NCBI GenBank assembly: GCA_009926935.1
Contig: RFNZ01000002.1
Span: forward strand, 89,473 to 153,472
Direction: 5' to 3'
DNA length: 64,000 nucleotides
Source of the DNA: Pseudomonadota bacterium
GTDB taxonomy: Bacteria > Pseudomonadota > Alphaproteobacteria > Micavibrionales > UBA1664
In this document: positions 22,932-23,051 of the stretch, one piece after another
How positions within the stretch are numbered: position 1 is the stretch's first letter
Layout of the letters: the number at the start of each line of letters is the position of its first letter
Position numbers and translations under genes: made by a program
Notes under the pieces: generated by a model
Database searches by the model: none
The model's input: the letters and a program-made list of their open reading frames with translations, nothing else
Told to the model about the DNA's origin: nothing

Positions 22932-23051
22932 AAAATCGAATTTATAAGCGGCAGATATCGAGCGTTTGCGAGAACCTGCCCGCAGCGTACTTAAAGGTAC
23001 GCGAGGACAGGCAGCGCAGCAATCGCCGATAGATGCCCTTAGAAATCGATT
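22932..23051. repeat. tRNA-flank palindromic element, copy A (about 120 bp)
   Basis: The outer arms aaaatcgaatttataagcggcagat... and ...agatgcccttagaaatcgatt are imperfect inverted copies. The central hairpin is gcgtac-ttaaag-gtacgc (22985-23002). It lies between the tRNA-His 3' end and the nnrD ATG. It is homologous to 36054-36174. Confidence 0.75.

Follow-up and report, generated by a model that had tools for sequence, protein, structure and literature searches.

Two long palindromes that stand directly 3′ of tRNA genes in an alphaproteobacterial genome raise the question of what kind of element they are, and whether the tRNA genes have any part in placing them there. Both lie in the 64,000-nucleotide stretch of Micavibrionales DNA analysed here (the window). 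A preliminary description made from the sequence alone had located them 3′ of tRNA-His and tRNA-Glu, and had suggested that they are under selection for structure and are co-transcribed with the tRNA, inserted preferentially at tRNA flanks, or sites of recombination.

Two long hairpins reach the tRNA 3′ ends

The two palindromes are present as described. Alignment of copy A (at tRNA-His) with copy B (at tRNA-Glu) recovered the blocks said to be common to both, ggcagat, gaacc, g[ca]gagcgta, tacgcgag and agatg[ct]cc, and confirmed the swap of the apical closing pair from C:G to G:C. Both are imperfect palindromes, as first reported, but their length is about 144-147 nt (22920-23066 and 36043-36186) and not ~120 bp. 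Being longer than first stated, the hairpins reach the tRNA 3′ ends. Copy B lies 0 nt from the CCA of tRNA-Glu (36187), where a spacing of 13 nt had been given, and the right end of copy A is about 6 nt from the CCA of tRNA-His (23072). Hairpin ends were set by a palindrome-register method; ends taken from the outermost pairs of minimum-free-energy (MFE) folds were unreliable because they included spurious flank pairing. The features of the two loci are listed below, with bit scores for the copies from covariance model R1, which was built from alignment A2 of 111 family copies.

22920..23066, + strand: copy A, full imperfect palindrome of ~147 nt (-66.1 kcal/mol, z = -8.9; R1 81.1 bits on +)
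22968..23020, + strand: copy A core, GCGAGAACC-N8-GCGTAC-loop-GTACGCGAG-N..GCAGCGCAGC, columns (nearly) invariant in 111 copies
22985-23002, + strand: copy A apical stem-loop, GCGTAC (22985-22990)-TTAAAG-GTACGC (22997-23002)
36043..36186, + strand: copy B, full imperfect palindrome of ~144 nt, oriented as copy A (from fold and R1)
36089..36141, + strand: copy B conserved core (from sequence and alignment columns 70/77)
36106-36123, + strand: copy B apical stem-loop, GCGTAG (36106-36111)-TTAAAC-CTACGC (36118-36123), with the rare G:C closing pair
23072..23147, - strand: tRNA-His(GTG), its 3′ end abutted by copy A (ARAGORN; Rfam 66 bits)
36187..36262, - strand: tRNA-Glu(TTC), its 3′ end abutted by copy B (ARAGORN; Rfam 56.7 bits)
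22124..22918, - strand: nnrD (Carb_kinase family), downstream of copy A on the tRNA strand (open reading frame)
35943..35961, + strand: intrinsic-terminator-like hairpin of a convergent arginase-family gene, left of copy B and outside the element (terminator scan)

Each copy folds as one long hairpin (z -7 to -11), and 0 of 200 shuffles folded equally well. Copy B reaches -74.7 kcal/mol (z = -10.8) on the + strand and -53.8 kcal/mol on the - strand. The window contains two occurrences of a 22-nt core pattern where 0.00 would be expected, and blastn within the window linked copies A and B at E = 6e-5 with no third copy. With filters off, R1 scored 87.6 (B) and 81.1 (A) bits on the + strand of the window, and the next match scored 19 bits. 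The model is strongly strand-specific, giving 87.6 bits on + vs 9.6 on - for copy B. We refer to the strand that it recognizes as the pattern strand; in copy A this is the + strand, antisense to both tRNA-His and nnrD.

Weak R1 matches at 10795-10931 and 43049-43133 are unrelated hairpins and not family copies. The former region holds an inverted repeat (10801-10839/10887-10925; z = -11.9) whose 39-nt arms, composed of CGCTAAG heptamers, are 92% complementary around a 47-nt AT-rich spacer; this repeat (10801-10925) may be the "first" palindromic family to which the preliminary description alluded. The hairpin at 43055-43126 is modest (z = -3.6), contains CACAG/CTGTG repeats and matches R1 weakly on both strands.

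The window is a metagenome scaffold whose GlnA and DXS proteins are closest to Micavibrio among named organisms (72-78% identity), and PF01256 is listed for the same nnrD gene in locus L125. As had been proposed, copy A fills the nnrD leader: the GTG start (22918) is only 2 nt past the hairpin, which must therefore be read through. A Shine-Dalgarno-like AAGGAAAAAG lies within the hairpin A arm (window 22916-22931), and nnrD translation initiation may thus need the element to open.

A dispersed family in Alphaproteobacteria

The core of copy A is 80-87% identical to sequences on megaplasmids of Sphingobium, Agrobacterium, Rhizobium and Ensifer. Searching a one-genome-per-species collection with the degenerate core pattern GAACC-N8-GCGTA-N5-10-TACGYGAG returned at least 120 genome loci, nearly all in Alphaproteobacteria, together with a few chance matches in actinobacterial coding sequence. 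Mesorhizobium is dominant among the matches listed, which also include Phyllobacterium, Devosia, Agrobacterium/Allorhizobium, Brucella-group genera, sphingomonads, Acidocella and Bosea, as well as Micavibrio, Rickettsiales and Bdellovibrionales MAGs. Every true core match listed is the centre of a ~145-nt hairpin. A further 43 IMG/VR contigs (L137-L179) carry the core pattern, all of them true family members, and a Mesorhizobium copy matched 34 plasmid or chromid records. The range of the family thus covers Rhizobiales, Sphingomonadales, Acetobacterales, Micavibrio-like lineages and gene clusters resembling gene transfer agents (GTAs) or prophages.

Several loci or genomes carry at least two copies. 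Paralogs at one locus are 78-91% identical, and pairs that are at least 95% identical are orthologous copies in related genomes, which indicates that the family amplifies within lineages and is then long retained. Arm sequences are lineage-specific.

Pairing is maintained across the family

The element is ~145 bp long, without an ORF and palindromic over its full length. Each copy forms one long hairpin with an asymmetric, nearly invariant core of ~50 nt at the apex and variable arms. In alignment A2 (111 copies) the core reads GAGAACCGG-AGCGGA-GCGTAC-loop-GTACGTGA-GCA-CCGGAAGCGCAG, and the internal loops are purine-rich on the pattern strand (tandem GA, GGA/GA, AGAA/AAG). Two arm types occur, G.CGAAAATGG...CCATTTGCAGGC and G.CAGATGG...CCAGATG.CC, the second of which includes both window copies. 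The core is conserved across orders, and the arms drift under a pairing constraint.

The preliminary description had proposed a test for more covarying pairs than the single swapped one. RNAalifold on the 111 copies gave one hairpin of 37 pairs, with compensatory double changes at 29 of the 37. In the alignment, 93.5% of cells were paired, compared with 76.5% after shuffling and about 35% with slid partners, and double changes occupied 603 cells, compared with 163 and 113-223, respectively. None of 500 shuffles reached the observed pairing or double-change values. At the swapped pair itself (columns 70/77), 102 copies have C:G and only 2, copy B among them, have G:C. In three genera (L003, L004, L105), orthologous copies located between etfB and etfA differ in their inner stems yet still pair. 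Covariation beyond the controls in 111 copies and pairing in these orthologs indicate that selection or homogenisation for pairing is real, and they support the earlier proposal that structure, rather than sequence alone, is under selection.

Three copies show further features at the hairpin. Two Mesorhizobium copies (L039 and L095) carry the same additional small hairpin of ~27 nt (AGTTCTACTGCGACGCAGTAGAACGGG), in both cases inserted at one position on the core's 3′ side. In an Acidocella MAG (L035), a cobalamin riboswitch match at 924-1251 (100.8 bits) extends over 328 nt for a 189-position model and encloses a family copy (core 1119-1151), which suggests that the element is nested in the riboswitch region.

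Copies lie at gene 3′ ends in one orientation

The asymmetric core was used to orient the copies relative to their neighbours, with crude ORF calls. Flanking genes fell into the classes "--" (45 copies), "+-" (39), "-+" (11) and "++" (8), so that in 84 of 103 copies the right-hand gene runs opposite to the pattern strand and ends at the right end of the element (binomial p = 6e-11). Examined frame by frame, 97 of 115 copies have an open frame of 100 codons or more whose end lies at a sharply peaked distance from the element, and 51 of these 97 ends fall in one 3-nt window; offsets of ORF ends in the opposite orientation are diffuse. The orientation rule was replicated in the IMG/VR contigs (42/42 vs 18/35).

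For protein genes, the stop codon is at the element terminus in most copies. Stop contexts are mostly Y-TAR-G (CTAGG 15, CTAAG 9, TTAAG 6), and many copies have Y-TA-R at both junctions, which would fit TA duplication at YTAR. The terminal triplets are inverted rather than direct (TAA..TTA, TAG..CTA, TGA..TCA), some ends read TGAGG..CCTCA, and no clean direct target-site duplication was found among the copies, including those in the window. Insertion into the TA of TAA or TAG by an element with R...Y ends would regenerate the stop codon, and this explains the exact abutment without the need for an RNA function.

The upstream genes are diverse across the genome copies, etfB being one of them. 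In the IMG/VR contigs they include genes for the major capsid protein (PF05065, 11 contigs), a cell-wall hydrolase (PF07486, 8 contigs) and the tail completion protein gp17 (PF11367, 5 contigs), and the capsid site in phage- or GTA-like clusters carries both arm types. Because the element lodges 3′ of any gene, its link to tRNA in the window is incidental. The insertion preference that had been suggested for tRNA flanks is instead one for gene 3′ ends and stop codons, and the window copies at tRNA genes are special cases of the rule "immediately 3′ of a gene, in one orientation".

The elements are missing from the same loci in relatives

Three relatives (L127, L131 and L132) preserve the gene order tig, tRNA-Leu, nnrD, tRNA-His/glnA, and a family HMM found no element in any of the relative loci L127-L132. 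In L131 and L132 (GlnA 74% identical), 42 nt separate the tRNA-His CCA from the nnrD ATG, a distance that suggests co-transcription of the two genes. In the closest relative, L127 (GlnA 93% identical), the spacer holds 343 nt of unrelated sequence. The tRNA-Glu gene is upstream of dxs in all four relatives compared (L133-L136, DXS 77-87% identical), and there its 3′ spacers of 14-65 nt contain no element. By this comparison of sequences, both window copies are lineage-specific insertions, missing at the same loci in relatives, and the inserted elements now constitute the tRNA-His/nnrD spacer and the tRNA-Glu trailer.

Three observations concern these flanks. The outermost stem of hairpin A (23054-23066) uses GCTTTTCCCTT, and the identical 11-mer is the native tRNA-His trailer in L131 (2170-2210), which lacks the element; the far end of copy A is complementary to this native flank. 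In L127, a 66-aa ORF is called at 1827-2027, between tRNA-His and nnrD, where the window has the element. In L135, a serine recombinase gene (Resolvase/Recombinase domains; 1-1363) lies directly 3′ of the orthologous tRNA-Glu, suggesting an integrative element at the same tRNA-Glu flank.

Strand asymmetry and the choice between explanations

We consider it probable that the family is a mobile palindromic repeat of the MITE/ERIC kind, one that settles at the 3′ ends of genes and shares a transcript with the gene upstream. The dispersed copies, their absence from orthologous loci and their exact abutment to stop codons are as described above; several observations sit less easily with this explanation. 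The centre is the most conserved part and the ends are the least, whereas the opposite holds for a classical MITE. The copies show no clean direct target-site duplication, and the strand that folds better is antisense to the upstream gene. In the 8-kb flanks of about 120 copies we found no autonomous partner, neither solitary ends nor an IS or transposase gene with matching ends. Finally, the pattern strand carries an excess of G.T wobbles, which would be unexpected if the mRNA-sense hairpin were the selected form.

This last asymmetry is marked. The mean folding energy is -75.6 kcal/mol for the pattern strand and -63.2 kcal/mol for the opposite strand, and in 111 of 121 copies (p = 7e-20) it is the pattern strand that folds better. 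Most of the difference resides in the arms (-7.5 kcal/mol), with a smaller share in the core (-2.3 kcal/mol). Over all pairs, our own tally gives 383 G.U vs 61 A.C on the pattern strand. Single-sided departures from the Watson-Crick consensus number 98 G.T vs 18 A.C on the pattern strand in the main subfamily, and 34 vs 13 in the remaining copies. Of the 111 copies, 104 keep a G.U at columns 65/82; in the two window copies this pair is G-C. Known transcription- and replication-linked mutation biases predict the opposite sign, and a mutational origin (non-template or leading-strand deamination) was rejected by this reasoning only. Two readings remain: either the pattern strand is selected, as ssDNA or antisense RNA, or mismatches in the mRNA-sense hairpin are themselves favoured.

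In about 82% of copies the better-folding strand is the antisense strand of the upstream gene, which gives scope for a strand-specific function of ssDNA or antisense RNA. The pattern strand itself would then be the functional entity, as a folded ssDNA site or a small antisense RNA, and placement and orientation at gene 3′ ends would follow from the mechanism and not from later selection. In the ssDNA form, the core might be recognised by a recombinase or HUH-type enzyme, by analogy with integron attC or REP/RAYT. Several features fit such an element: wobbles and better folding stay on the pattern strand whatever the orientation of the neighbouring gene, the covariance model discriminates between strands, the internal loops of that strand are purine-rich, its G.U at columns 65/82 is nearly fixed, and the core is conserved across orders above arms that drift while remaining paired. 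Integron attC sites, too, lie directly 3′ of ORFs in a fixed orientation and act through the antisense strand. Against this, no integrase, RAYT or other recurrent enzyme gene was seen near the copies, which are single and dispersed beside housekeeping genes rather than arrayed; the conserved boxes are basal in attC and apical here; and at the window copies no promoter-like site for antisense transcription was found. We regard a functional pattern strand as a minority possibility. That it represents an undescribed class of strand-specific element (an antisense RNA, or folded ssDNA serving as a site of recombination or transposition) directing itself to gene 3′ ends seems to us unlikely. Such a class would be a functional analogue of attC or REP with a different architecture and a putative protein partner, spread across Alphaproteobacteria and GTA or prophage clusters.

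An element tied to tRNA genes, whether as a trailer structure, through a preference for inserting at tRNA flanks or as a tRNA-bound recombination site, was the natural first reading, as each window copy stands against the 3′ end of a tRNA gene, both on the same strand; with ~7 tRNAs among ~60 genes, two of two would occur by chance in about 1-2% of cases (a rough estimate). The wider family speaks against it. Of the 123 non-window copies listed, a single one lies within 300 nt of a tRNA gene, and it is upstream of that tRNA; the rest are elsewhere, the scatter that the preliminary description itself had named as contradicting a tRNA association. The window has seven tRNA genes, five of them without any such element, the orthologous tRNA genes of relatives lack it, and the copies of low-GC relatives (L005, L008, L018, L091, L094) come after protein-coding genes. 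At the level of the whole family the tRNA-linked reading is already refuted, and we hold it very improbable as an account of the elements. Ordinary intrinsic terminators of the tRNA genes are still harder to credit: the hairpins are stable and directly follow a gene, but a terminator scan called no site at either copy, no T run follows either hairpin on the tRNA strand, the stem of ~60 pairs carries a conserved core, nnrD begins so close to hairpin A that read-through is required, and many copies lie 5-40 nt before the next same-strand gene, so that they appear operon-internal and cannot be efficient terminators.

Comparison with known repeats and RNAs

In scans of the window copies and typical copies against Rfam 15, at gathering thresholds and by E-value, no family matched and noise alone was returned, which answers the comparison that the preliminary description had proposed. 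A 13-bit match to the Brucella sRNA BASRCI337 is noise and does not recur on a Brucella-group copy. Core and arm strings led to no relevant paper in the literature searched, the sole match being unrelated. LexA-box, CtrA-box and CcrM-site readings of the core were compared by eye, and none matches the consensus. A Neisseria uptake sequence or Correia context was also rejected, no DUS being present.

The closest likeness is to ERIC/IRU, Correia (NEMIS) and RUP, which, like this family, are non-coding, full-length imperfect palindromes of 100-170 bp, intergenic, dispersed, and present or absent at orthologous sites. ERIC and Correia lie in transcribed regions, and their orientation can matter for mRNA. 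The present family differs from them in having no sequence similarity, in its conserved apex and variable ends across several alphaproteobacterial orders, in its strict placement at stop codons with an orientation bias of about 4:1 to 42:0, and in lacking both a partner transposase in the 8-kb flanks and a clean target duplication.

The family resembles attC sites in position, orientation and strand asymmetry. attC sites are imperfect palindromes of similar length, variable in sequence and conserved in structure; they lie directly 3′ of an ORF in a fixed orientation, and their active strand is antisense to the ORF. The family, in contrast, has no R''/R' boxes (RYYYAAC/GTTRRRY) at the base and is conserved at the apex instead; neither an integrase or recurrent recombinase nor cassette arrays were seen next to copies, which are scattered beside housekeeping, tRNA and phage or GTA genes. 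Extragenic palindromes at the 3′ ends of genes also include the REP/BIME elements, which can stabilise the upstream mRNA and are handled by a strand-specific ssDNA enzyme (RAYT). REP hairpins are GC-rich, measure 20-40 nt, bear a GTAG motif and number in the hundreds, often grouped in alternating clusters, whereas each copy of this family is a single ~145-nt hairpin with a different core.

Palindromic intergenic repeats from the same bacterial class include Bru-RS1/Bru-RS2 of Brucella and RIME1/RIME2 of rhizobia. RIME1 is abundant in Sinorhizobium meliloti. No Sinorhizobium record, including the S. meliloti megaplasmids, is among the 34 matching plasmid records, which argues against RIME1; the family is probably distinct from it. 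A supplement on S. meliloti sRNAs lists only short REPs on pSymB. The YTAR/TA junctions of the present family resemble the target of IS711 described for Bru-RS (PMC3163539). Nine Bru-RS1/Bru-RS2 sequences of Brucella melitensis (PMC2267715 supplement) were compared with the family by nhmmer (E up to 100) and blastn, and no similarity was found; the family is not Bru-RS. It is widespread in Alphaproteobacteria and apparently unnamed and undescribed, although an older name is possible.

Discussion

Under the mobile-repeat explanation that we favour, copies would have been inserted, and then retained, exactly at the gene 3′ end, that is, at the stop codon or the tRNA CCA end, with mobility supplied by a transposase acting in trans. 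Transcription of the upstream gene would extend into the element, as a 3′ trailer or a spacer inside an operon, and there its long hairpin could serve as a 3′ RNA structure, for example an exonuclease barrier or an attenuator. Of the three suggestions in the preliminary description, co-transcription with the upstream gene is the one we judge likely, and a role as a recombination site is possible.

The family is conserved across orders, strongly covarying, absent from Rfam and not found in the literature searched. It sits very precisely at the base that follows a gene end, in one orientation, recurs after the major capsid gene of GTA- and phage-like clusters, and has a strand asymmetry that contradicts the simplest reading as a 3′-UTR hairpin. 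In kind it is a variant of known palindromic repeats; as a family it seems not to have been described. Should an ssDNA or antisense-RNA mechanism lie behind the asymmetry, the family would represent a new system for targeting the 3′ ends of genes; otherwise it is another MITE-like family to be masked in alphaproteobacterial annotation and sRNA screens.
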